A stretch of DNA of 64,000 nt from an uncultured Ruminococcus sp. (GCA_964621755.1 CAZUPI010000002.1:4442-68441), one strand, 5' to 3'; positions 49,619-59,844 are shown, numbered from the stretch's first letter. Notes: a model not told the origin generated them from the sequence alone. Program-made: numbers and translations.

Positions 49619-50314
49619 ATGAAAAAAATTGCACTGACCTGCTCTGTTGGAAACAGCTACACCCTCCATCCGCGTTACATAAATTATATCACAGCCGCGG
49701 CAAAGCAGTTCCAAATGGAAGTCATGCCAATCATCCTGCCTTCTGTAACAGACCCCGCCATACTGGACGAATTTGTAAAATCCTTCGACGGCTTTCTTTT
49801 CACAGGCGGCGTAGATATAAACCCATCCCTATACGGCGAGGAACTGCACGAAAAATGCGGCGAAATTCAGCCTCTCCGCGATACGCATGAACTGATGCTT
49901 CTCGAGCGAATCCGAAAATCGGGTGTTCCGGCGTTCGGAATCTGCCGCGGGATACAGGTGATGGCGGTCGCAGCCGGGGGTAAGCTCTGGCAGGACATCT
50001 ATGCACAAAAACTGGGCGAGGGCGCAGAACACTGCGTCAGGGACGAAAACGACCGCACGCACCATCCGGTAACGTTGTCCGGCTCTCTCGCAGAAGTTGC
50101 CGGTACCACAAGCGTCACAACCAACAGCTACCACCATCAAGCGGTAAAATCGGTCCCCGCAAACATCGAAATCTGTGCTCTCACCCCCGACGGCCTTATC
50201 GAAGCCATCAATGACACATCCCTCCCCTATTACCGTGCCGTTCAATGGCATCCCGAACTTCACTCCGATGAACTATCCTACAAAATTATAAAGCCGTTTT
50301 TTGACGCGCTGTAA
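49619..50314 (+). CDS. Gamma-glutamyl-gamma-aminobutyrate hydrolase-like peptidase C26 / class I glutamine amidotransferase
   Basis: 231 aa. The nucleophile elbow is AFGICRGIQVM and the His motif is QWHPE. Confidence 0.85.
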   Translation: MKKIALTCSVGNSYTLHPRYINYITAAAKQFQMEVMPIILPSVTDPAILDEFVKSFDGFLFTGGVDINPSLYGEELHEKCGEIQPLRDTHELMLLERIRKSGVPAFGICRGIQVMAVAAGGKLWQDIYAQKLGEGAEHCVRDENDRTHHPVTLSGSLAEVAGTTSVTTNSYHHQAVKSVPANIEICALTPDGLIEAINDTSLPYYRAVQWHPELHSDELSYKIIKPFFDAL

Positions 50315-50366
50315 CGGAACGCTGCCATCGACAGAAAGGACATCCCATGAATCAAGAACTGTATGA

Positions 50367-51407
50367 TTTTATAACGGAACGCCGACAGAGAGCGTTTCGG
50401 CAGGAGCCGCTGGACGACCGCTCCGGACAGTATGCGGCAAATGGACTTTCACCGCGGGCAAGGCGGAGACATTCCGCGAAGCGCTGCAATTCTTCCGCAT
50501 TATCCACTATGCGCTTTGGGCGGAGGGAAATTATCACAACACGATTGGCAGGTTCGACAAGTACATGATGCTCGGCGGGTCAGACGGAATGGGCGGCGAG
50601 ATTTATAACAAGCTTACCGCGATGTGTCTGCGCGCGTCGGGCGAGTTGAAGCTCATCGACCCCAAAATCAACCTTCGCGTGACGAAAAATACGCCCCTGG
50701 GGGTCTATCAGGAAGGGACAAAACTCACAAAGGTTGGGCTTGGCTTCCCGCAGTACTCGAACGACGATGTTGTGATTCCGGCCCTCGTGAATCTCGGATA
50801 CGACGACGAAATCGCACATTTGCTTCGCAGCGAGTCGCCGAAGGTCGGGAGTGCCGATTCAGATACCGCCGACGAGCAGCTTGTATGGCTGACCGAGGTA
50901 TTCTCCGCTTCCCTGCGCGGGAAAAAGAATGAACGCGGCGGAATCTGGCGCGCCGGAACCGGTTCCGCGATGTTTTATCTGTGGCACGCGGAAGAAATCG
51001 GTGCGTCCCCTGACGGCAGGCGGCGCGGTGAGCCGTTCGCTGCCAACTACTCGGCATCCCTGTTCGCCAAAATCGACGATCCGGTCCATATCGTGAAATC
51101 CTTCACGAAACCGGACCTTGCGAAGGTCATCAACGGCGGTCCTTTGACGCTTGAATTCGACAGCAAAATTTTTGCGAATGAGGAAAGCATGACTAAGGTG
51201 GCGTCTCTTGTAAAATATTTCGTGAGCCGCGGTGGACATCAGCTCCAGCTCAATGCGGTATCCCACGAGGCGCTCCTCGACGCGCAGATTCATCCGGAAA
51301 AGTACGAGCGGCTGATTGTACGCATCTGGGGCTGGAGTGCCTATTTTGTGGAACTGGACAAGGGCTTCCAGGACCATGTGATACGCAGGCAAGAGTATCG
51401 CATGTAA
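50367..51407 (+). pseudogene. Deletion-riddled remnant of a glycyl radical enzyme (PFL-like). The only ATG-initiated ORF is 50565-51407.
   Basis: The C-terminus carries a glycyl-radical motif (LIVRIWGWSAYFVEL) preceded by GASPDGRRRGEPFAANYS. Upstream in the same frame, AETFREALQFFRIIHYALW..GRFDKYM matches the mid-region of GREs but has no start codon. The total is about 1 kb against about 2.4 kb for intact enzymes, and the catalytic Cys loop is absent. Confidence 0.7.
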
Positions 51408-51446: not shown

Positions 51447-51474
51447 TTGTTGATTTAAAAAGATGTGGTATATT
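51447..51474 (+). promoter_or_regulatory. Candidate promoter (extended -10) of the ABC importer operon
   Basis: TTGTTG (51447-51452), a 16-nt spacer ending in TGg, then TATATT (51469-51474). Confidence 0.35.
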
Positions 51475-51555
51475 CCGTCTGTTTCAGGTTATACTAAGCA
51501 GCACAGACGACGGTTTTATTCGTGAAATCTGCCGCAATCTGTTTGGAGGCAACTC

Positions 51556-53703
51556 ATGAAAAAGTTTTTATCACTTGCGCTTGCCGTTTTGATACCACTC
51601 TCCTCGGCGGCTATACTCGCTTCCTGCGGCAAGGTAAGCGACGAAGACAACGTTATCATTCTTGGCAATACAACGGAACTTTCGGGTGACTTCCGTTTTC
51701 CCGGGTACGGCGCCTCATCATCCAGCGCTGCTGACCAGGACATCAACAAACTCACCGTCGGCTATTCCACCATGGAAACAAACCAGACCGGTGAATACGT
51801 ATGGAATGAAACCGCAGTTAAATCCCATACAGAGGAAGTTGTTGACAATGGGGACGGTACCGAAAACTATAGGATAACCATCGAAATCAACGAAGATCTG
51901 ACCTTCTCCGACGGTACTCCCATTACTGCGGATAACTACCTGGCCTACACGTTAGCGTTCAGTACCATCGTCGCACGCAACGCGGGCAGCACAGGTATGG
52001 CCGGGCAGTCCTTAGTAGGTTTTGCCGACTTCGCCAACTATGCCGGCGAGGGCGTCAAAGTAAATCCAGAAGCAAATGCTGCCAAAGAATTCGCAGGTGT
52101 TCGCAAGCTCGGCGAATACGAATTCTCCCTCGAGATTGACGGCGCTACCGGATTTTATCCCTACTACTACGCATACATTTACTCGGCAGTCACCCCCTAC
52201 GATTTGGGGCTTATCTTCGGCGACGGCGTATCCATCAAGGACGACGGCAAGGGCTGCTACCTCGAAGGCAGCTGGTATGAGCAGCGCGCTGACTCCACCG
52301 CTGACGCTCTCGCTTTCAAGAAATCCGCGCACATGCAGGAAGCGCGTTATGACACAACAAAATATCCCTTCTCCGGTCCTTATACCATCACAGCATGGGA
52401 TGAAGGTACCAAGCAGGCTACTCTGACCAGAAACGACCTGTTCCAGGGCAACTTTGAAGATCAAAAGCCGGCCATTCTCACAGTTGTGTATGTCAAAATC
52501 GTTGCCGAAACACAGATTGACCTCCTAACAAGCGGGGGCGTTGACGTCCTTTCAGGCGTGACCGGCGGCGATATGACAAAGGCGGCGCTTCAGGTTGTCG
52601 GCAGCGGCTTCAAGGAAAACCACTATCAAAAAGCCGGTTACGGCAAAATTCAGTTTGACTGCGACTTCGGTCCCACTCTGTTCGTGGAGGTCCGCCAGGC
52701 AATCGCGACCCTTCTCGACAGACCTACGTTTGCCACCACCTTTACAGGAGGCTACGGAAAAGTTGTAAACGGTCCGTATTCGGAAGACTCCTGGATGTAT
52801 CTCGCCGCAAGGGACACACTGGAAGACGCCATGAACACATACGAATACTCCCTTGCAAACGCCAAAACCATCCTGGAAGAAGGAGGCTGGATATACAATT
52901 CCAAGGGGGAACCATATGTTGAAGGTGCGTCCGGCGTTGACAAAGTGCGTTACAAGAAAATAACAAGAGAAGAGCTTGAGACGCTTACTACAAAAGACTG
53001 TGTAGAAGCCACCATCAACTACCAATCCGTAAACAATACCGACAGCATCGTCTATAAAACCACAGAAATAAATGGTGCATACTATATCCCGCTGGCAATC
53101 AACTGGTTCTCTACCGCCGACAACGCGGTATCCGACCTTCTTTCCACCATGCTCGCAAACGGCACTGATGTGACAGCTGCGGGTATGGTAATCCGTCAGG
53201 CAGTCGGCGACTTCAACTCTCTCCTCGGCGAAATTTATCGTGAACCTTCGTACGGCTACAACGGCGTTATCAAATACAGTATGTATAACCTCGCAACAAG
53301 CTTTACCAGCACGATATATGACTTCTCCTGGAACTGGTCTCTTGACCCGAATTACTTTGCGTACTCGGTAAACAAGCTCTACGACGAGTACGACGCGGCG
53401 TTCCCGTACTATGATGCAGACGGCAGCCACGAAAAACGCAGCTATGCGGAAGCATTGGAAAAGTCCGGCGGCAAGCTTGGTATGGACTACCTGTCCATGG
53501 CAATGGTATACGACGCCGCATCCAACGAAGAATACCTGGAATGGTGGACAGCGTATATCCAGAGATGGAACGAGCTTATCCCCGATATCCCGCTGTACTG
53601 CAACTTCTACTACGACGTATACAACGAAAAGATTCAAGATTACTACACCTCTCCTTATTGGAGAACTGCTGATGCTGTTCTTTACTGCTCTATCAAGGGC
53701 TGA
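51556..53703 (+). CDS. ABC transporter substrate-binding lipoprotein, family 5 (Opp/Dpp type), oversized
   Basis: 715 aa. The signal peptide plus lipobox is LSSAAILASCGK. SBP_bac_5-like segments are present (DLTFSDGTPITADNY). The SD is GGAGG. Confidence 0.85.
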   Translation: MKKFLSLALAVLIPLSSAAILASCGKVSDEDNVIILGNTTELSGDFRFPGYGASSSSAADQDINKLTVGYSTMETNQTGEYVWNETAVKSHTEEVVDNGDGTENYRITIEINEDLTFSDGTPITADNYLAYTLAFSTIVARNAGSTGMAGQSLVGFADFANYAGEGVKVNPEANAAKEFAGVRKLGEYEFSLEIDGATGFYPYYYAYIYSAVTPYDLGLIFGDGVSIKDDGKGCYLEGSWYEQRADSTADALAFKKSAHMQEARYDTTKYPFSGPYTITAWDEGTKQATLTRNDLFQGNFEDQKPAILTVVYVKIVAETQIDLLTSGGVDVLSGVTGGDMTKAALQVVGSGFKENHYQKAGYGKIQFDCDFGPTLFVEVRQAIATLLDRPTFATTFTGGYGKVVNGPYSEDSWMYLAARDTLEDAMNTYEYSLANAKTILEEGGWIYNSKGEPYVEGASGVDKVRYKKITREELETLTTKDCVEATINYQSVNNTDSIVYKTTEINGAYYIPLAINWFSTADNAVSDLLSTMLANGTDVTAAGMVIRQAVGDFNSLLGEIYREPSYGYNGVIKYSMYNLATSFTSTIYDFSWNWSLDPNYFAYSVNKLYDEYDAAFPYYDADGSHEKRSYAEALEKSGGKLGMDYLSMAMVYDAASNEEYLEWWTAYIQRWNELIPDIPLYCNFYYDVYNEKIQDYYTSPYWRTADAVLYCSIKG

Positions 53704-53735
53704 GTACAGCGTATAAATCAACTGATAACGGACAG

Positions 53736-53768
53736 ACTATTGGGAGTGCGACAATCACTCCCAATAGT
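53736..53768 (+). promoter_or_regulatory. Intercistronic stem-loop between the SBP and permease genes (partial terminator or mRNA stabiliser)
   Basis: A 13-bp perfect stem (ACTATTGGGAGTG/CACTCCCAATAGT) with a 7-nt loop. Only a short T tract follows. Confidence 0.5.
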
Positions 53769-53871
53769 TTATATGTCCCACTTTAGCAAATATCCCTGCA
53801 CGTTTTATCCAATGAAACGTACAACCGGCCGCGCATATTCTATTTTTAAATTTCGAATTCTGAGGTGTATT

Positions 53872-54891
53872 ATGGGAAAGTACATACTGAAACGTATCGG
53901 TTATATGCTGCTTGTCCTCGTGATTCTCTCCTTTCTCATGTATCTTATTTACAATATGATACCGTACGATAGAGCGCGTGCCCTCGTCGAAGAACAAAAG
54001 GCGGTCTATAAAAATGACCCGGCAGGATTCGAGCGTGCATACCAGAATTACCGCCACCAGTTAGGCCTCGACCGGAGCGTCGTATTCCGCTACCTCCATT
54101 GGATTGGTCTTGTGCCAATTGACGGAGTCTACGACGGTTTGCTGCAGGGCAACTTCGGCTGGAGCTTCCAATACAACCGCCCCGCAACGGAGGTCCTCGT
54201 CGAACCGATGCGCAATACCATCTTTATTAATATCTTCGCAACCCTATTCGCTCTCGGTATTACCCTCCCTCTCGGCATCTTCTGTGCCGTACACCGCGGC
54301 AGCAAACGGGACTCCGCCGTTCAAATCGGCACCATCGTCGGCTACAGCATCCCGAGCTTTATCATCGCAATTCTGTTCATCTGTCTCTTTGCCGTCATTA
54401 TCCCGATATTCCCCGTCAGCGGTATGAAAACCCCCGGAAGCAGTTACTCTGGAATCAAAAAATTCTTCGACGAGCTTTACTACATGGGACTTCCCCTCGT
54501 CGTGATGACCTTTTCCTCCCTCGGCGGCATGACCCGTTACGTCCGCGCTTCCATGACCGAAGCACTCTCTATGGACTGTATCCGCACCGCACGTGCAAAA
54601 GGACTGCATGAAAAGGTCGTTATTTATTCTCACGCTTGGAGAAACGCCCTCATCCCGATTATCACCCTGATTATCGGATGGTTTATCGGCATCTTCTCCG
54701 GCTCCCTTATGATTGAAAATATTTTTGCTCTCAACGGAATGGGGCGTATCTACATCAACTCGCTCAACTCCAACGACTATGAGGTGGTGCTGATTCTGCA
54801 AATGTTCTACGTCACCCTTGCGCTGCTCGGCAATCTGATAATAGACATTGCATACGGCGTCGCAGATCCGCGTGTCCGTGTGTCAAAGTAA
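53872..54891 (+). CDS. ABC transporter permease (OppB/DppB type)
   Basis: The start at 53872 (MGKYILKRIGYMLLVLVI) is canonical for OppB-like proteins. About 339 aa with 6 TM helices. The track's upstream extension lacks an SD. Confidence 0.9.
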   Translation: MGKYILKRIGYMLLVLVILSFLMYLIYNMIPYDRARALVEEQKAVYKNDPAGFERAYQNYRHQLGLDRSVVFRYLHWIGLVPIDGVYDGLLQGNFGWSFQYNRPATEVLVEPMRNTIFINIFATLFALGITLPLGIFCAVHRGSKRDSAVQIGTIVGYSIPSFIIAILFICLFAVIIPIFPVSGMKTPGSSYSGIKKFFDELYYMGLPLVVMTFSSLGGMTRYVRASMTEALSMDCIRTARAKGLHEKVVIYSHAWRNALIPIITLIIGWFIGIFSGSLMIENIFALNGMGRIYINSLNSNDYEVVLILQMFYVTLALLGNLIIDIAYGVADPRVRVSK

Positions 54892-54909
54892 CCGGAACGG
54901 AGGAAAATC

Positions 54910-56829
54910 ATGAAAAAAAAGAAAAAATCACTCCGTCATTCATGGCTCGGCAGAATGTTCTGGGGCGCATCCAAAACTCTCGACGACAATCCCGATAAAT
55001 ACGCAAGTCCCGGGAAACTCGCCGTACAACGCTTCTTCCGCCGTCCCGCAGCCTGCGTTGCGCTTGCAATCATCATCGTCATGTTTCTGTTCGTCTTTAT
55101 CGGGCCGCTTATCAACCCAATTGACCTTTCTTATTCGGAAACCCTCCACAAAAATCTCGGTCCCTCCTATGACATGATATCCATTCCGTCCGCTCTTGCG
55201 AGGGACGTCAAGGAAATTTCATCTTATTCCTCCTTTTCTCTCGGGCTTGACAACGCCGGAAACGTCTACACATGGGGCAAAACCTACCTGAAGGATGTCA
55301 AAATCGATATTTCGGACATCCCTGAAGAAGTGCAAAACAACAATATCGTTCACGCGGCTGCCGGTATCGACCACGCTGTGGCCATCTCCGAAGACGGTCA
55401 CCTCTACTGCTGGGGCGCATATGACAACGGTCAGTACGGTATGAACGGCAGCATGATTTCCATAGCAAAGCCGCAGCCGTACGACCTCATCACCGGCACG
55501 ATTGACGTGGCAAATGTAAAACAGCTCATCTGCGGCAACCAGGTCACAGCAATTGTCATGAACGACGGCTCCTCTTATATGTGGGGCAACTACAATATCG
55601 GCGCCACCAACATTACCTCGTTTGACGATATTCCCAACCTCGAAAAGGTCGTGTTCCTCCAATCCCTCATTGTCGGCATCACACAGGACGGTAAATTCGT
55701 TTGCGGCAAGACCTCCGCGTTTGACTCGTATGAAATCATCAATGCAAACGGCGCCGCTGCGCTCACCAATCTCTGGGATTTTCTGGATGACCATAAAGTC
55801 GTCGATATTGCGTCCAATATGACAAACGCCTGTCTCCTGCTTGAGGACGGTTCTCTTCTTATCGTCGGGGCGTCTGGGGACAACTCCCGCGCGATTCCGA
55901 CCATCCCGGACGGCGAAACCGTAACGGCAGTCTACGGCGGCGCAAGGCACTACGCCCTCCTCACCGACGCCGGACGTGTTCTCACATGGGGCGGCAGCGC
56001 GCTCAGCCAGACCGATATTCCCGTCTCTATGCAAAATCCCGGCGCCGCTGACAACCTCTACTGCGTCGGTTTCCAGACTTATGCTGAAAAAGACGGCGAA
56101 ATTGTGGAAAAGTGGGGCTTCAAAGGCTATCTCATGGGAACCGACGAGATCGGACGGGACATATTTGTCCGCGTGATGAACGGCGGTAAAATGACCATGA
56201 CCATCGGTGCGGTCGCGGTTATTCTTTCCTCTGTCATCGGCATCATCATCGGCTGTATCTCGGGCTACTTCGGCGGAAAGGTCGACATTTTTCTCATGCG
56301 TGTGACCGAGATTTTTTCCGCCATTCCGTTTCTGCCGTTCGCACTTGTCCTGTCTGCAATCCTCCGTCAAACGGACGTAAAGGAGGACACGCGAATTTTC
56401 CTCATCATGGTTGTGCTCGGTATTCTGACGTGGACCGGACTGGCGCGGCTCGTCCGCGGTCAAGTACTCGCGGAACGGGAAAAGGAATTTGTTCTGGCAG
56501 CACAGTCGATGGGGGTCCCCGAGAGCCGTATCGCGTTCAAGCACATCCTGCCAAACGTCATTTCGGTCATCATCGTATCCCTTACCCTTGACTTCGCCGG
56601 ATGTATGCTCACCGAAGCGTCCCTGTCTTACCTCGGCTTCGGCGTACAGCTTCCCCGTCCGACATGGGGCAACATGCTCTACGGATGCAACAGCTCAATT
56701 GTCATCAAATCCTACTGGTGGAGATGGGTCTTCCCAGCCCTCTTCCTTTCGGCCAGCACCATTTCCATCAACGTAATCGGTGATACCCTGCGCGATATTT
56801 TTGACCCGAAGTCGGAGGTTGAAAAATAA
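54910..56829 (+). CDS. ABC transporter permease (OppC/DppC type) with a roughly 310-aa RCC1-like beta-propeller inserted in the first external loop
   Basis: 639 aa. TM1 is CVALAIIIVMFLFVFIGPLI. Seven repeats of about 45-50 aa follow (GNVYTWG, GHLYCWGAYDNGQYG, GSSYMWG, GKFVCG, GSLLIVG, GRVLTWG, EIVEKWG). Canonical OppC sequence then resumes: LMGTDEIGRDIFVRVMNGGKMTMTIG plus 5 TM helices. Confidence 0.85.
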   Translation: MKKKKKSLRHSWLGRMFWGASKTLDDNPDKYASPGKLAVQRFFRRPAACVALAIIIVMFLFVFIGPLINPIDLSYSETLHKNLGPSYDMISIPSALARDVKEISSYSSFSLGLDNAGNVYTWGKTYLKDVKIDISDIPEEVQNNNIVHAAAGIDHAVAISEDGHLYCWGAYDNGQYGMNGSMISIAKPQPYDLITGTIDVANVKQLICGNQVTAIVMNDGSSYMWGNYNIGATNITSFDDIPNLEKVVFLQSLIVGITQDGKFVCGKTSAFDSYEIINANGAAALTNLWDFLDDHKVVDIASNMTNACLLLEDGSLLIVGASGDNSRAIPTIPDGETVTAVYGGARHYALLTDAGRVLTWGGSALSQTDIPVSMQNPGAADNLYCVGFQTYAEKDGEIVEKWGFKGYLMGTDEIGRDIFVRVMNGGKMTMTIGAVAVILSSVIGIIIGCISGYFGGKVDIFLMRVTEIFSAIPFLPFALVLSAILRQTDVKEDTRIFLIMVVLGILTWTGLARLVRGQVLAEREKEFVLAAQSMGVPESRIAFKHILPNVISVIIVSLTLDFAGCMLTEASLSYLGFGVQLPRPTWGNMLYGCNSSIVIKSYWWRWVFPALFLSASTISINVIGDTLRDIFDPKSEVEK

Positions 56830-57857
56830 TGGAGAAAAAAAACGATGTTTTGCTTCAGGTAAAGAATCTGCATACCTACTTTAAAACCAGAAACGGCATC
56901 ATCAAGGCGGTAAACGACGTCTCATACGAGCTTTGCGCCGGTAAGACCCTCGGTATCGTAGGTGAGTCCGGTTCCGGCAAAAGCGTATCGGCCATGAGCA
57001 TTCTCCGCCTTCTGGACGCCAACGGCTATATCGCGGAGGGAGAAATCCTCTTTCGCGGACAAAATCTCGTCACCCTTCCCATTCAAGATATGTACAACAT
57101 CCGCGGAAATAAAATTTCGGTTATCTTCCAGGAACCGATGACGAGCTTAAACCCGGTCTTTACGATAAAAAGACAGCTTTCCGAACCGTTCATGATTCAC
57201 CAGAAGATGTCCATGGAGGAGGCCGCAAAAAAGAGTCTTGAAATGCTCGAAGCGGTGCAGATTCCAAACCCGGAAGCGGTTCTCCGGCAATATCCGCACC
57301 AGCTCTCCGGCGGTATGAGACAGCGCGTCATGATAGCGATGGCGCTCGCCTGCAAGCCGGACATTCTCATCGCGGACGAGCCGACCACAGCCCTTGACGT
57401 CACGATTCAGGCACAGATTCTCAAGCTCATGAACGACCTCCAGCGCACCAACGGCACGTCGATTCTCTTCATCACCCATGACCTCGGCGTCATCAATGAA
57501 ATGGCGGACGACGTAGTCGTCATGTACTGTGGGCAGGCGGTCGAACAGGCGCCGGCAAAGGTGATTTTCACCGACTGCAAGTTCAGCCATCCGTATACAG
57601 AGGGGCTGATGTTCTCCATCCCGCGTCTGAACGACACACGCGCGAAGCTCGACCCGATTCCCGGCGTAGTCCCGCACCCCCTCGCCCTGCCGAAGGGATG
57701 CAAATTCTCGCCGCGGTGCAAATACTGCACACAGAAGTGCATAGACGACGAGCCCAAGCTGCTGCCGGCAGGTGAAAATCAGCTTATCCGGTGCCACTAT
57801 CCCGAAAAAGCGGTGAGGAGGAGCGCAGAGCATGAAAAAATTGCTATCCATCAATAA
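56829..57857 (+). CDS. ABC transporter ATP-binding protein (OppD/DppD type)
   Basis: 342 aa. Walker A is GESGSGKSV, the signature is LSGGMRQR and Walker B is ILIADEPTTALD. The C-terminal oligo_HPY region contains Cys residues (CKFSPRCKYC). Confidence 0.92.
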   Translation: MEKKNDVLLQVKNLHTYFKTRNGIIKAVNDVSYELCAGKTLGIVGESGSGKSVSAMSILRLLDANGYIAEGEILFRGQNLVTLPIQDMYNIRGNKISVIFQEPMTSLNPVFTIKRQLSEPFMIHQKMSMEEAAKKSLEMLEAVQIPNPEAVLRQYPHQLSGGMRQRVMIAMALACKPDILIADEPTTALDVTIQAQILKLMNDLQRTNGTSILFITHDLGVINEMADDVVVMYCGQAVEQAPAKVIFTDCKFSHPYTEGLMFSIPRLNDTRAKLDPIPGVVPHPLALPKGCKFSPRCKYCTQKCIDDEPKLLPAGENQLIRCHYPEKAVRRSAEHEKIAIHQ

Positions 57858-59436
57858 CCTGAAAAAATACTTCCCTCTCGCGAAAAAAAGCCTTTTTCAA
57901 AAGGAGCAATACTATGTGCGCGCCAACGACGATATCTCCCTTGACATCTACGAAGGCGAGACGTTCGGATTGGTAGGGGAATCGGGATGCGGCAAATCGA
58001 CGCTTGGACGTGTGATTCTCCAACTCTATCATCAGACCGCCGGGAGTACCATGTACTACGGCCGAACCCTTGCGCAGGCTGCACCGAGTTATGTCATCGA
58101 TACGTTAAAGCACGCGGAGGAGTACGTTGCCGCGTACCATGCTGCGGAAAAGAAAGCGGCGGAAGCTGTGGAAAAGTGCAAACTTCTCGGGGAGAACGCA
58201 ACATTTCTCGACCTGCAAAGCAAAAATCTCGCACTTGCAAAAGCACAGACCGCGTGCAGCAAGACAGCAAAAATTCTCGGCGGCTTTGCAGCGGAAGGAA
58301 CCCGCGAAGGAGCGGACGCTCTGCTTGCCCTATTTGAAATAAACGTAGAAGAAGCGGAAATCCGCCGCAAAATCGAGGATATCGAGCTGGAAACGGAGCT
58401 CATGGAAGGAAAAATCGAGGACCAGAAGAAAGCGGGCAGCTCGATCGACTCACGGAACAGCAAGCTGTCCGGTCTGCGCGAGAAGAAAAAAACATTGGAG
58501 ACGGAAAGAAAAGCGGTCGGTGATAAGCGCGCAGCAGCAGAAGCGAAAGTGGAAACGCTGCGCACAAAGTACCGCGGTCACGCCGAATTTGATAAATACG
58601 AAGCGATGCTTGACGACGGCATTGACCTTTCAAGATTGACCGCTGCCGAAATGCGCGCGATTCGCCGCGACCTGCAAATTATCTTCCAAGACCCGTACTC
58701 CTCGCTGAACCCGCGTATGACCGTCGGTCAGATAATCGCAGAAGGGTTGGTGACACACAAATTTTTCAAACGCGGATCACCGAAAATGAAGGAATACATC
58801 CTCCGCGAAATGGAGAACTGCGGATTACCGGACTACATGTACAGCCGTTATCCGCACCAATTTTCGGGCGGTCAGCGTCAGAGAATCTGCATCGCACGTT
58901 CTCTCGCCGTTAAGCCAAAATTTGTGGTCTGCGACGAGTGCGTATCCGCGCTTGACGTGTCGATTCAGTCGCAGATTATCAACCTGCTTCAGGAGCTGAA
59001 GGAAAAGGAAAAGCTGACGTACCTGTTCATCTCCCACAATCTGTCGGTCGTACGGTACATCTCAGACCGAATCGGCGTCATGTACCTTGGAAATATGGTA
59101 GAAGTAGCGCCGACGGACACGATATTTAAAGACCCGCGTCATCCTTACACCGTAGCGCTCCTGTCCTCCATCCCCACAACGGACCTCGAAGGCTCCAAAA
59201 AGGAACGCATCATCCTTGGCGGAAACATCCCCAGCCCGATAAAGCCGCCGTCCGGATGCAAGTTTCACCCCCGCTGCTACATGGCGTGCGACAAATGCAA
59301 GCGTGTTCCTCCGCCGTACGTAGAAGTTGAGCCGGGTCATTTTGTAGCCTGTCACAATCTCGACCGCAAGGTCGATGAAAATGGAGCCTACCTATTCGAA
59401 CTCCACCAATCCGAAGCGGAGCTTGGAAAGGATTGA
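57832..59436 (+). CDS. ABC transporter ATP-binding protein (OppF/DppF type) with a roughly 190-aa coiled-coil insertion after the Walker A region
   Basis: 534 aa. Walker A is GESGCGKST. An insertion at aa 81-268 is rich in A/E/K heptad-like sequence. Canonical sequence then resumes: LQIIFQDPYSSLNPRMTVGQ, FSGGQRQR, FVVCDECVSALD. Confidence 0.88.
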   Translation: MKKLLSINNLKKYFPLAKKSLFQKEQYYVRANDDISLDIYEGETFGLVGESGCGKSTLGRVILQLYHQTAGSTMYYGRTLAQAAPSYVIDTLKHAEEYVAAYHAAEKKAAEAVEKCKLLGENATFLDLQSKNLALAKAQTACSKTAKILGGFAAEGTREGADALLALFEINVEEAEIRRKIEDIELETELMEGKIEDQKKAGSSIDSRNSKLSGLREKKKTLETERKAVGDKRAAAEAKVETLRTKYRGHAEFDKYEAMLDDGIDLSRLTAAEMRAIRRDLQIIFQDPYSSLNPRMTVGQIIAEGLVTHKFFKRGSPKMKEYILREMENCGLPDYMYSRYPHQFSGGQRQRICIARSLAVKPKFVVCDECVSALDVSIQSQIINLLQELKEKEKLTYLFISHNLSVVRYISDRIGVMYLGNMVEVAPTDTIFKDPRHPYTVALLSSIPTTDLEGSKKERIILGGNIPSPIKPPSGCKFHPRCYMACDKCKRVPPPYVEVEPGHFVACHNLDRKVDENGAYLFELHQSEAELGKD

Positions 59437-59457
59437 AAAGACGCGCAAGGAGAATCT

Positions 59458-59664
59458 ATGTTTGAAAAATTCAAAAGGGTAATAAAGGCGCACGAAGGAA
59501 AGCAACTCACGAATAACGAATGGAATGAGGGACTTAAAAGACAGGGCGGACTGGAAAAATACGATTTTCTCGCGATGGTAATCGCCGCCTCTGTTGTCAT
59601 TATCCCGGTATGTCTCGTGCTGCTCGTGATTCTTTCTGCGGTATGCTGCCTGTTTCTGTTGTAA
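59458..59664 (+). CDS. Small tail-anchored membrane protein, last ORF of the ABC operon
   Basis: 68 aa. The SD AAGGAGA lies 5 nt upstream. A polar N-terminal half is followed by one C-terminal TM helix (FLAMVIAASVVIIPVCLVLLVILSAVCCLFLL). Confidence 0.55.
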   Translation: MFEKFKRVIKAHEGKQLTNNEWNEGLKRQGGLEKYDFLAMVIAASVVIIPVCLVLLVILSAVCCLFLL

Positions 59665-59708
59665 CGGAATGTAACAGATATTTTTTCCTTTCCATCTAGC
59701 GATAAAGT

Positions 59709-59750
59709 AAAGGGTACAGTTTCTTGCATAGACTGTACCCTTTGTTTTGT
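59709..59750 (+). terminator. Rho-independent terminator of the ABC operon
   Basis: A 12-bp stem (AAAGGGTACAGT/ACTGTACCCTTT) with an 11-nt loop is followed by TGTTTTGTT. Confidence 0.7.
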
Positions 59751-59844
59751 TGATTTTAACTATTTTATCACGCGTCCAATTATGGTATACTATTTTTACT
59801 TATAGGAAAATTTTCTGATAAATTATCATGGAGAAAAGAAAAAC

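Follow-up and report, generated by a model that had tools for sequence, protein, structure and literature searches.

What kind of transporter is encoded by a gene cluster in which a substrate-binding protein (SBP), a permease and an ATPase all appear oversized? The question is raised by positions 51,447-59,750 of a 64,000-nucleotide (nt) stretch of DNA from an uncultured Ruminococcus sp. (GCA_964621755.1 CAZUPI010000002.1:4442-68441), which is called the window here. A preliminary description had read this locus as an ATP-binding cassette (ABC) importer of the Opp/Dpp family and as a candidate for an undescribed system. All six open reading frames (ORFs) that it listed were recovered at the same places and with the same sizes. 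The architecture represents a widespread, unnamed clostridial subfamily, in which a conserved small membrane protein accompanies a propeller in the P1 loop of one permease and a helical arm on one ATPase. The genes and the two inserted elements were as follows:

51556-53703, + strand: SBP gene; 715-amino-acid (aa) ORF with lipobox and SBP_bac_5
53872-54891, + strand: OppB-type permease gene; 339 aa, canonical, with BPD_transp_1_N and BPD_transp_1
54910-56829, + strand: OppC-type permease gene; 639 aa, with the propeller within the P1 loop
55192-56124, + strand: RCC1-like propeller of seven blades; ~aa 95-405 of OppC, extracytoplasmic
56829-57857, + strand: OppD-type ATPase gene; 342 aa, canonical, with ABC_tran, oligo_HPY and a Cys-rich C-terminal region
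57832-59436, + strand: OppF-type ATPase gene; 534 aa, with split ABC_tran, oligo_HPY and an internal insertion
58066-58617, + strand: helical insertion of OppF (the arm); 184 aa, aa 79-262, a short and a long antiparallel helical hairpin
59458-59664, + strand: gene of a small tail-anchored membrane protein; 68 aa, one C-terminal transmembrane segment (TM)

A widespread clostridial subfamily of Opp/Dpp importers

Pfam domains of the Opp/Dpp family were detected on all five large proteins. The two permeases were distinct, one of the OppB type and one of the OppC type, with all four Pfam domains above their cut-offs, and both ATPases comprised ABC_tran and the oligo_HPY C-terminal region. Among solved proteins, Opp/Dpp subunits of E. 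coli and M. tuberculosis came closest in both sequence and fold. The locus is, almost beyond doubt, a type I ABC importer of the Opp/Dpp family (PepT; Transporter Classification 3.A.1.5). The best NCBIfam models were Opp4B, Opp4C, OppD and OppF, and the whole-protein scores all stayed under the curated cut-offs (OppD 378.9 vs. 575, OppF 354.2 vs. 540; Opp4 below). No named NCBIfam equivalog (Opp4A/B/C, OppB/C/D/F, DppB/C/D/F, NikA-E, or GsiA-D) reached its cut-off. This indicated a member of the Opp/Dpp (PepT) family that has no named equivalog.

The same family and the same subunit set are represented by the solved importers OppBCDF and DppABCDF of E. coli (8z21, 8z1v-8z1z) and OppABCD (8j5q-t) and DppABCD (8wd9-b) of M. 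tuberculosis, which share with the window operon a cluster C SBP, OppB- and OppC-type permeases and two oligo_HPY ATPases. The M. tuberculosis SBP is a lipoprotein, as is the window SBP (PMC10954201). However, the solved importers have no domain in the P1 loop of OppC/DppC, no ATPase insertion after Walker A and no sixth small subunit, and their SBPs are ~150-200 aa shorter. The structural alignments to them spanned the transmembrane and nucleotide-binding domain (NBD) parts only. Staphylococcal Opp4 supplied the best curated models for the window OppC (304.7 bits) and OppB (224.8 bits), but the window proteins fell short of its cut-offs (Opp4C 350, Opp4B 450, and Opp4A 650, the last scoring 38.5). 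The Opp4C model (278 positions, no propeller) matched the window OppC in two stretches, the best of which was aa 405-634, the transmembrane part. Mollicute OppD and OppF (MMSYN1_0167, 561 positions; MMSYN1_0168, 649 positions) are also PepT ATPases far above 330 aa. Membership of the window OppF in the elongated mollicute OppF family was rejected at 295.8 bits against a cut-off of 800; the match fell into three separated stretches, and the likeness, which is one of length and model match only, is a lead.

Among the papers searched on a propeller in OppC, the OppF insertion, mollicute OppF and PDB entry 9p48, nothing relevant was found, and the architecture was absent from the searched literature, the curated models and the solved structures. 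In that sense the expectation of an undescribed system was borne out. It did not hold as regards novelty of kind, in that the add-ons are a variant of a well-known importer kind, not a new kind of system, and the locus is no one-off. The subtype is common, being widespread in gut and rumen Clostridia, and it is uncharacterised.

The spread of the operon was assessed with a scan of one genome per species. The conservation set consisted of the best 80 of at least 536 candidates and was selected by the propeller permease; some of the candidates may be ordinary OppCs, as two seed motifs fall in the transmembrane part. The operon was incomplete in five short contigs of the 80 (four for OppF). The order SBP-OppB-OppC(RCC1)-OppD-OppF was invariant in 80/80 fetched species-level loci, and the RCC1-permease domain set was present in 120/120 protein clusters at 90% identity among the matches listed. 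The six ORFs are real genes and not chance ORFs, because the same order recurs in dozens of genomes. The carriers belonged to Oscillospiraceae, Lachnospiraceae, Christensenellales, Faecousia and Ca. Scatosoma from human, mouse, rabbit and ruminant guts, and two of them were isolates, Acetatifactor muris DSM 23669 and Faecousia intestinalis CLA-AA-H192. Two loci were recorded under 'Bacteroidaceae' (L037) and 'Acidiphilium sp. CAG:727' (L042); all other carriers were Clostridia, and these two are probably mis-binned or misnamed. No neighbour beyond the operon was conserved in the 80 loci, except for an M3 oligoendopeptidase gene, which adjoined the operon in 8/80.

Propeller, ATPase arm and small membrane protein

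In OppC, Pfam placed OppC_N at aa 33-85, then the RCC1 repeats, then BPD_transp_1 at aa 444-634. By hydropathy, TM1 spans aa 50-68 and TM2 spans aa 432-450, and the ~360 residues between them constitute the extracytoplasmic P1 loop. The repeats scored above their cut-offs (RCC1_2, 69.1 bits vs. 22; RCC1, 26.8 vs. 21.7), and the whole-domain model WD40_RLD reached 103, under its cut-off of 150. Seven blade motifs were located near aa 122, 168, 225, 266, 320, 360, and 402. The AlphaFold2 (AF2) model, built with 45 homologues, had a predicted local distance difference test score (pLDDT) of ~90 over the propeller, with three to four strands per blade. Foldseek matched the loop to UVR8, BLIP-II (TM-score 0.74-0.79), HERC2, RPGR and RCC1, and the transmembrane part of the model superposed on OppC/DppC of E. 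coli and M. tuberculosis. The extra mass proposed for the outer face was thus placed between TM1 and TM2 of OppC. BLIP-II, UVR8, RCC1, HERC2 and RPGR share the fold and the repeat family of the window propeller at 16-20% identity, and BLIP-II, a secreted bacterial protein, is the closest in size. The window propeller, in contrast, interrupts a polytopic membrane permease within one of its loops, and no solved structure shows a propeller in that setting. Its length was nearly constant (310-339 aa in 79/81 sequences) while its sequence drifted, with a median identity to the window of 41% vs. 75% for the transmembrane part of OppC.

The DppABCD structures of M. tuberculosis show DppB reaching into the SBP with its P1 loop, a 'scoop loop' of 56 aa; DppB and DppC are alike in topology except for transmembrane helix 1 and the P1 loop, and the SBP is contacted mainly by the P1 and P3 loops of DppB and the P3 loop of DppC (PMC10954201). 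By analogy, the propeller would fill a P1 loop that is normally short and minor, and it would lie beside the SBP docking surface because it replaces the P1 loop of OppC. RCC1-like domains serve as protein-binding platforms. Guanine-nucleotide exchange or another known RCC1 activity is not expected in an extracytoplasmic bacterial domain.

The SBP had a signal peptide and the lipobox LASC with Cys24, and SBP_bac_5 scored 100 bits against a cut-off of 32.4 (E = 2e-28). Its closest solved relative was OppA 9p48 (562 aa), with E = 2.6e-25 for the single sequence and 1.6e-37 for the family profile. In the alignment, the ~150 aa by which the SBP exceeds 9p48 were distributed over an N-terminal linker and two internal stretches of ~46 and ~38 residues, and no additional Pfam domain was found on the SBP. 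The preliminary description had counted this extension among the large non-canonical modules; compared with 9p48, the enlargement was diffuse and contained no discrete module. By sequence alignment, the protein is a diffusely enlarged cluster C (family-5) SBP.

The alignment of OppF to M. tuberculosis OppD (8j5q_D) jumped from query residue 78 to 263 while the solved chain had no gap, and the insertion is therefore aa 79-262. It lies past the strand that follows Walker A and ahead of the Q-loop, and the rest of the NBD is complete. The AF2 model (49 homologues) predicted helices at aa 95-122, 125-153, 157-201, and 206-247, and the block-mean pLDDT of the insertion was 71-97, mostly at least 86, which exceeded that of the NBD core. 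Alignment and model thus put the extra mass that had been proposed for the inner face into the cytoplasmic ATPase, as a helical insertion. In the long hairpin, helices 3 and 4 had net charges of -7 and +6 and the heptad a/d positions were 67% hydrophobic; 'coiled coil', judged from the model, is a fair name for this long pair. The first hairpin and the closing segment were conserved among relatives (aPxY..T, KILGGF, FxKYEAxLDxGiDL), and the long hairpin was variable in length and sequence. A sub-lineage close to the window (L001, L164, P0127-P0130, P0135) had an OppF of only 482-484 aa, in which the insertion measures ~135 aa and the tip of the long hairpin is trimmed.

When the whole OppF model was searched with Foldseek, the matches were to the NBD and no solved ABC ATPase aligned over the insertion. 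An SMC/Rad50-type ATPase was considered and rejected; SMC_N scored 23.9 bits against a cut-off of 40, and the match reflects the shared ATPase core. The arm of the ABC-F protein EttA and the coiled coils of Rad50 and SMC are antiparallel helical elements that project from an ABC ATPase and reach a partner. These proteins differ from OppF in family and in insertion point, so the resemblance is one of logic only. Both window ATPases also carried a Cys-rich C-terminal motif, CKFSPRCKYCTQKC...C in OppD (aa 298-324, 57719-57799) and CKFHPRCYMACDKC...C in OppF (aa 476-508, 59257-59355), and in the latter the cysteines did not vary across the OppF alignment. In M. tuberculosis, the corresponding part of OppD binds an iron-sulfur cluster.

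The 68-aa protein consists of a basic/acidic N-terminal region of ~36 aa, a GGLEKxD motif and one C-terminal TM with a conserved Pro, and its ATG is preceded by AAGGAG at 7 nt, a good ribosome-binding site. The gene was also predicted by independent gene callers, at 63-72 aa. A homologue (56-119 aa, one family) directly followed OppF in 67/70 checkable loci, and the family traits were a basic N-terminus, an acidic stretch, GGLEKxD or a related motif, and a C-terminal TM with a proline. The most conserved part was the membrane-adjacent and intramembrane segment, GGLEKxD..AM...P. No Pfam or NCBIfam family matched the protein. What had been a footnote in the preliminary description is a conserved family, and the 68-aa ORF is a sixth component of the operon. 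KdpF with KdpABC and AcrZ with AcrB are membrane proteins of <100 aa that are encoded in or near a transporter operon and are proposed to bind and tune the transporter. They bear no sequence relationship to the window protein, for which such binding is putative. We know of no small single-pass accessory protein for any Opp/Dpp importer.

Co-occurrence, covariation and limits of the operon

The preliminary description had asked whether the elaborations occur together. In loci with the propeller permease, the SBP measured 693-842 aa in 70/70 related loci that include it, and the OppF insertion was full (171-196 aa) in 71/76; of the remaining five, L001 (135 aa), L021 (142 aa) and L072 (105 aa) had a shortened insertion, and L003 and L004 had none. 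The latter two are rather close to the window, with an OppC identity of 70-74% and the same thiI gene downstream. Their OppF was a complete canonical ATPase of 333-362 aa, and the propeller and the large SBP were retained, which indicated that the insertion was cleanly lost there. The more divergent L166 again had a propeller OppC before its insertion-bearing OppF, which was followed by a small gene from the family described above. The OppF of L166 (8001-9558) was frameshifted into ORFs of 436 and 98 aa on a long-read contig, by sequencing error or as a pseudogene.

The small gene was absent from three of the 70 loci, namely L003, L004 and L072, and these had the three shortest OppF insertions among the 70, none in L003/L004 and 105 aa in L072. 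L021, with its insertion of 142 aa, and L164, with a 482-aa OppF of the short-insertion type, retained the small gene; L001 (135 aa) ran to the contig edge and was outside the 70 loci. The joint absence of the small gene and the full arm is suggestive of a link between them.

The reverse question, whether the insertion occurs without the propeller, was approached from the insertion. A homologue search with the OppF insertion alone gave three fragments only, and a representative search with it gave 31 matches, mostly fragments, a count that is uninformative on distribution because, with clustering at 50%, other sequences evidently stand for the insertion-bearing OppFs. A metagenome scan on one narrow motif, [KR]YEAMLD[DK], drew mainly on a few species. 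Most of what it recovered was the same operon, and within this narrow, low-diversity scan no reliable case of an insertion without a propeller was found. Two loci with an insertion-bearing OppF behind a propeller-less OppC (L091, L130) were almost certainly assembly chimeras, because their OppD switched mid-gene, from ~aa 175, from 27-77% identity (30-residue windows) to 100% aa identity with the CAG:110-type operon of an abundant species, at a coverage of <2x. They were dropped as evidence of independence.

Covariation among subunits was estimated with mirror-tree (pairwise-distance) correlations over the loci, which are confounded by linkage and unequal evolutionary rates. An outer block comprised the SBP, OppB and the two parts of OppC, propeller and transmembrane (r = 0.74-0.88), and an inner block comprised OppD, the OppF core and the OppF insertion (r = 0.80-0.85). 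Correlations between the blocks were low (r = 0.14-0.59). The distances of the small protein tracked those of OppF (r = 0.41-0.43), not those of the SBP or the propeller (r = 0.01-0.03). The raw value for the propeller and the SBP was r = 0.88, and their partial Mantel correlation was r = 0.44 (p = 0.001, 67 loci) with OppB and the OppC transmembrane part as controls. The partial correlation between the propeller and the OppF insertion was small and non-zero, 0.22. In addition, L005/L012 differed from L007 mainly in OppF, with 50% identity in OppF and 77-85% in the SBP, OppB, OppC and OppD, and their OppF was nearer to the Faecousia-type OppF (59-62% identity). This suggests that OppF alone was replaced in these loci. 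The distance statistics offer support, not proof, for a picture in which the add-ons are, as we think probable, organised as two modules, one outer and one inner.

Three further metagenome contigs (L087, L096, L106) were mosaics that shared a breakpoint near positions 5018-5063 of L117, at the start of the OppC transmembrane part. Their upstream portions (SBP, OppB and propeller) were highly divergent, that of L106 being 97% identical to Faecousia intestinalis, and downstream they matched the CAG:110-type locus at 87-94% identity for 3.2-7.7 kb. They could be assembly chimeras joined at a conserved stretch, or the outer module could really have been exchanged as a cassette, and they were not used as evidence.

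The transcription signals around the genes were the following:

51447-51474, + strand: promoter-like site; TTGTTG (51447-51452), 16-nt spacer, TGgTATATT (51466-51474, extended -10)
53730-53778, + strand: intergenic hairpin after the SBP gene; perfect 14-bp stem, then UUUAUAU
59703-59759, + strand: intrinsic-terminator-like hairpin and T-run; hairpin 59703-59749, 20-pair stem

Recomputed from the coordinates, the junctions were, in gene order, a 168-nt gap, an 18-nt gap, a 1-nt overlap, a 26-nt overlap and a 21-nt gap, in exact agreement with those given before. The stem-loop in the 168-nt gap and the strong terminator were likewise confirmed by folding. The former had -30.6 kcal/mol (z = -5.2; 0/200 shuffles as stable) and the latter -27 kcal/mol (z = -5.8 vs. 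shuffles), and these two hairpins bound a single transcription unit. The promoter-like site was found by eye and is readable in the sequence, but it was omitted by the consensus scan because its -35 matches at 3/6 positions only, and it is a plausible, weak candidate. The locus is a self-contained six-gene operon, because the flanking genes are not conserved, and the nucleotide composition across the region was unremarkable.

Just upstream of the operon (50347-51407, + strand) were two adjacent ORFs of 73 and 280 aa, the larger of which matched only positions 340-423 of a 647-position PFL-like model and a glycine-radical C-terminal domain. This larger ORF seems to be what is left of a glycyl-radical enzyme after truncation or fragmentation. 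Further upstream (49619-50314, + strand) was a Peptidase_C26/class-I glutamine amidotransferase gene of the gamma-glutamyl hydrolase type, whose adjacency was not kept in other genomes.

Proposed mechanism and its rivals

Overall, the best explanation was an Opp/Dpp importer operon with two add-on modules that most likely takes up oligopeptides; as a whole, we give it about an even chance of being right. In this scheme, the propeller would serve as a platform for protein binding, on which the enlarged, membrane-tethered SBP is held or selected; pre-capture of the ligand is a less likely role. On the inner side, the short conserved hairpin of the OppF insertion would pack near the ATPase, and the long, variable, charge-complementary arm would bind the ~36-residue cytoplasmic N-terminal segment of the small protein. 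As a sixth subunit, the small protein would thereby stabilise the ATPase or regulate it. Of the separate steps, binding of the arm to the small protein is possible, if a little short of an even chance, and binding of the propeller to the SBP is proposed still more tentatively. Peptides, most likely oligopeptides, are slightly favoured as the substrate, because the nearest solved SBP is an OppA and M3 oligoendopeptidase genes neighbour the operon in eight loci. A wider proposal would see here a six-subunit architectural class, in which the propeller acts as a receptor for its own SBP or a macromolecular ligand, the microprotein clamps the ATPase arm, and the outer and inner modules are exchanged or lost independently; taken together, we consider it somewhat unlikely.

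Several results weigh against this scheme. The overall mean pLDDT of the two AF2 models was modest, 72 and 77, and their input was 45-49 fairly similar sequences. The covariation of the propeller and the SBP could stem from shared fast extracellular evolution or from genetic linkage. The small protein and the OppF insertion showed a weak partial correlation (0.14), and the length of the N-terminal segment of the small protein was not significantly correlated with insertion length (rho = 0.29, p = 0.06). The loss of the small gene with the arm amounts to only two independent events, L003/L004 being one lineage and L072 the other. The intact transporter in a lineage without the arm and the small protein shows that the inner module is dispensable for core function. 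As for the substrate, the PepT family is chemically diverse; its systems also take up nickel, opines, haem and oligosaccharides, and the flanking genes are not conserved.

The preliminary description had suggested a single co-adapted elaboration. In a transmembrane machine of this kind, capture outside by the propeller and the enlarged SBP would be coupled, mechanically or informationally, to the arm in the cytoplasm, which would make it a combined transporter-sensor or would link uptake with a cytoplasmic partner or with oligomerisation. The presence of all the elaborations in nearly every locus, including the divergent L166, and the residual correlation of the propeller and the insertion are consistent with it. 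However, L003 and L004 retained the outer elaborations and lost the inner ones, the distance matrices fell into two blocks, OppF alone was discordant in L005/L012, and the operon neighbours included no conserved sensor-output domain or regulator gene. A single machine is thus quite improbable; the losses and the split in the correlations point to two separable blocks instead, and the two-module picture is better supported. It is also conceivable that the arm does not bind the small protein, and that it dimerises transporters, recruits a soluble protein such as a peptidase or a regulator, or autoinhibits, while the small protein contacts the permeases or acts alone. The variability of the long hairpin, the small protein retained in loci with insertions of 135-142 aa, its weak residual covariation with the insertion and its best-conserved segment, at or in the membrane, would all fit such an arrangement. 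We nevertheless regard it as unlikely, since the small gene was missing exactly from the three of the 70 checked loci with the shortest or absent insertions, and its distances followed those of OppF and OppD, not those of the membrane or outer subunits.

With regard to the substrate, a glycopeptide, a cell-wall fragment, an oligosaccharide or a metal chelate might be taken up in place of oligopeptides, with the propeller binding a glycan or cell-wall polymer. The SBP was under every equivalog cut-off, including Opp4A, and besides 9p48 it matched solved peptide, nickel, opine and haem binders weakly. Yet the closest solved protein, well ahead of any other, was deposited as a peptide-binding OppA, the M3 oligoendopeptidase genes stand beside the operon in eight loci, and no glycoside hydrolase or metal-handling family met the conserved-neighbour threshold, so that a substrate of this kind seems on balance unlikely. 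Finally, the long ORFs could have arisen from assembly or sequencing errors or from fusions, or the insertions could be decaying mobile DNA. Some short, low-coverage metagenome contigs of this operon family are indeed mosaics, and one long-read contig has a frameshifted OppF; but intact frames recur in 80 genomes, two isolates among them, the insertion lengths are tightly constrained, AF2 folds both insertions at high confidence and the regional composition is unremarkable. An artefact is accordingly hardly credible.

Opp/Dpp importers are a main peptide uptake route of gut anaerobes and structural models of type I ABC import, and databases give the parts of this subfamily no names more specific than 'ABC transporter permease subunit' or 'ATP-binding cassette domain-containing protein'. 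Docking of the SBP by the propeller, if it occurs, would offer a new solution to the question of how importers of Gram-positive bacteria retain and choose their tethered binding proteins. Should the small protein bind the arm, this importer family would, as far as we found, have its first accessory microprotein, and a new point of regulation would be known on an ABC motor. The two cultured carriers, Acetatifactor muris DSM 23669 (L056) and Faecousia intestinalis CLA-AA-H192 (L055), make these questions testable. Even if both interactions turn out not to exist, a gene cluster that is common in the gut would still be better annotated.

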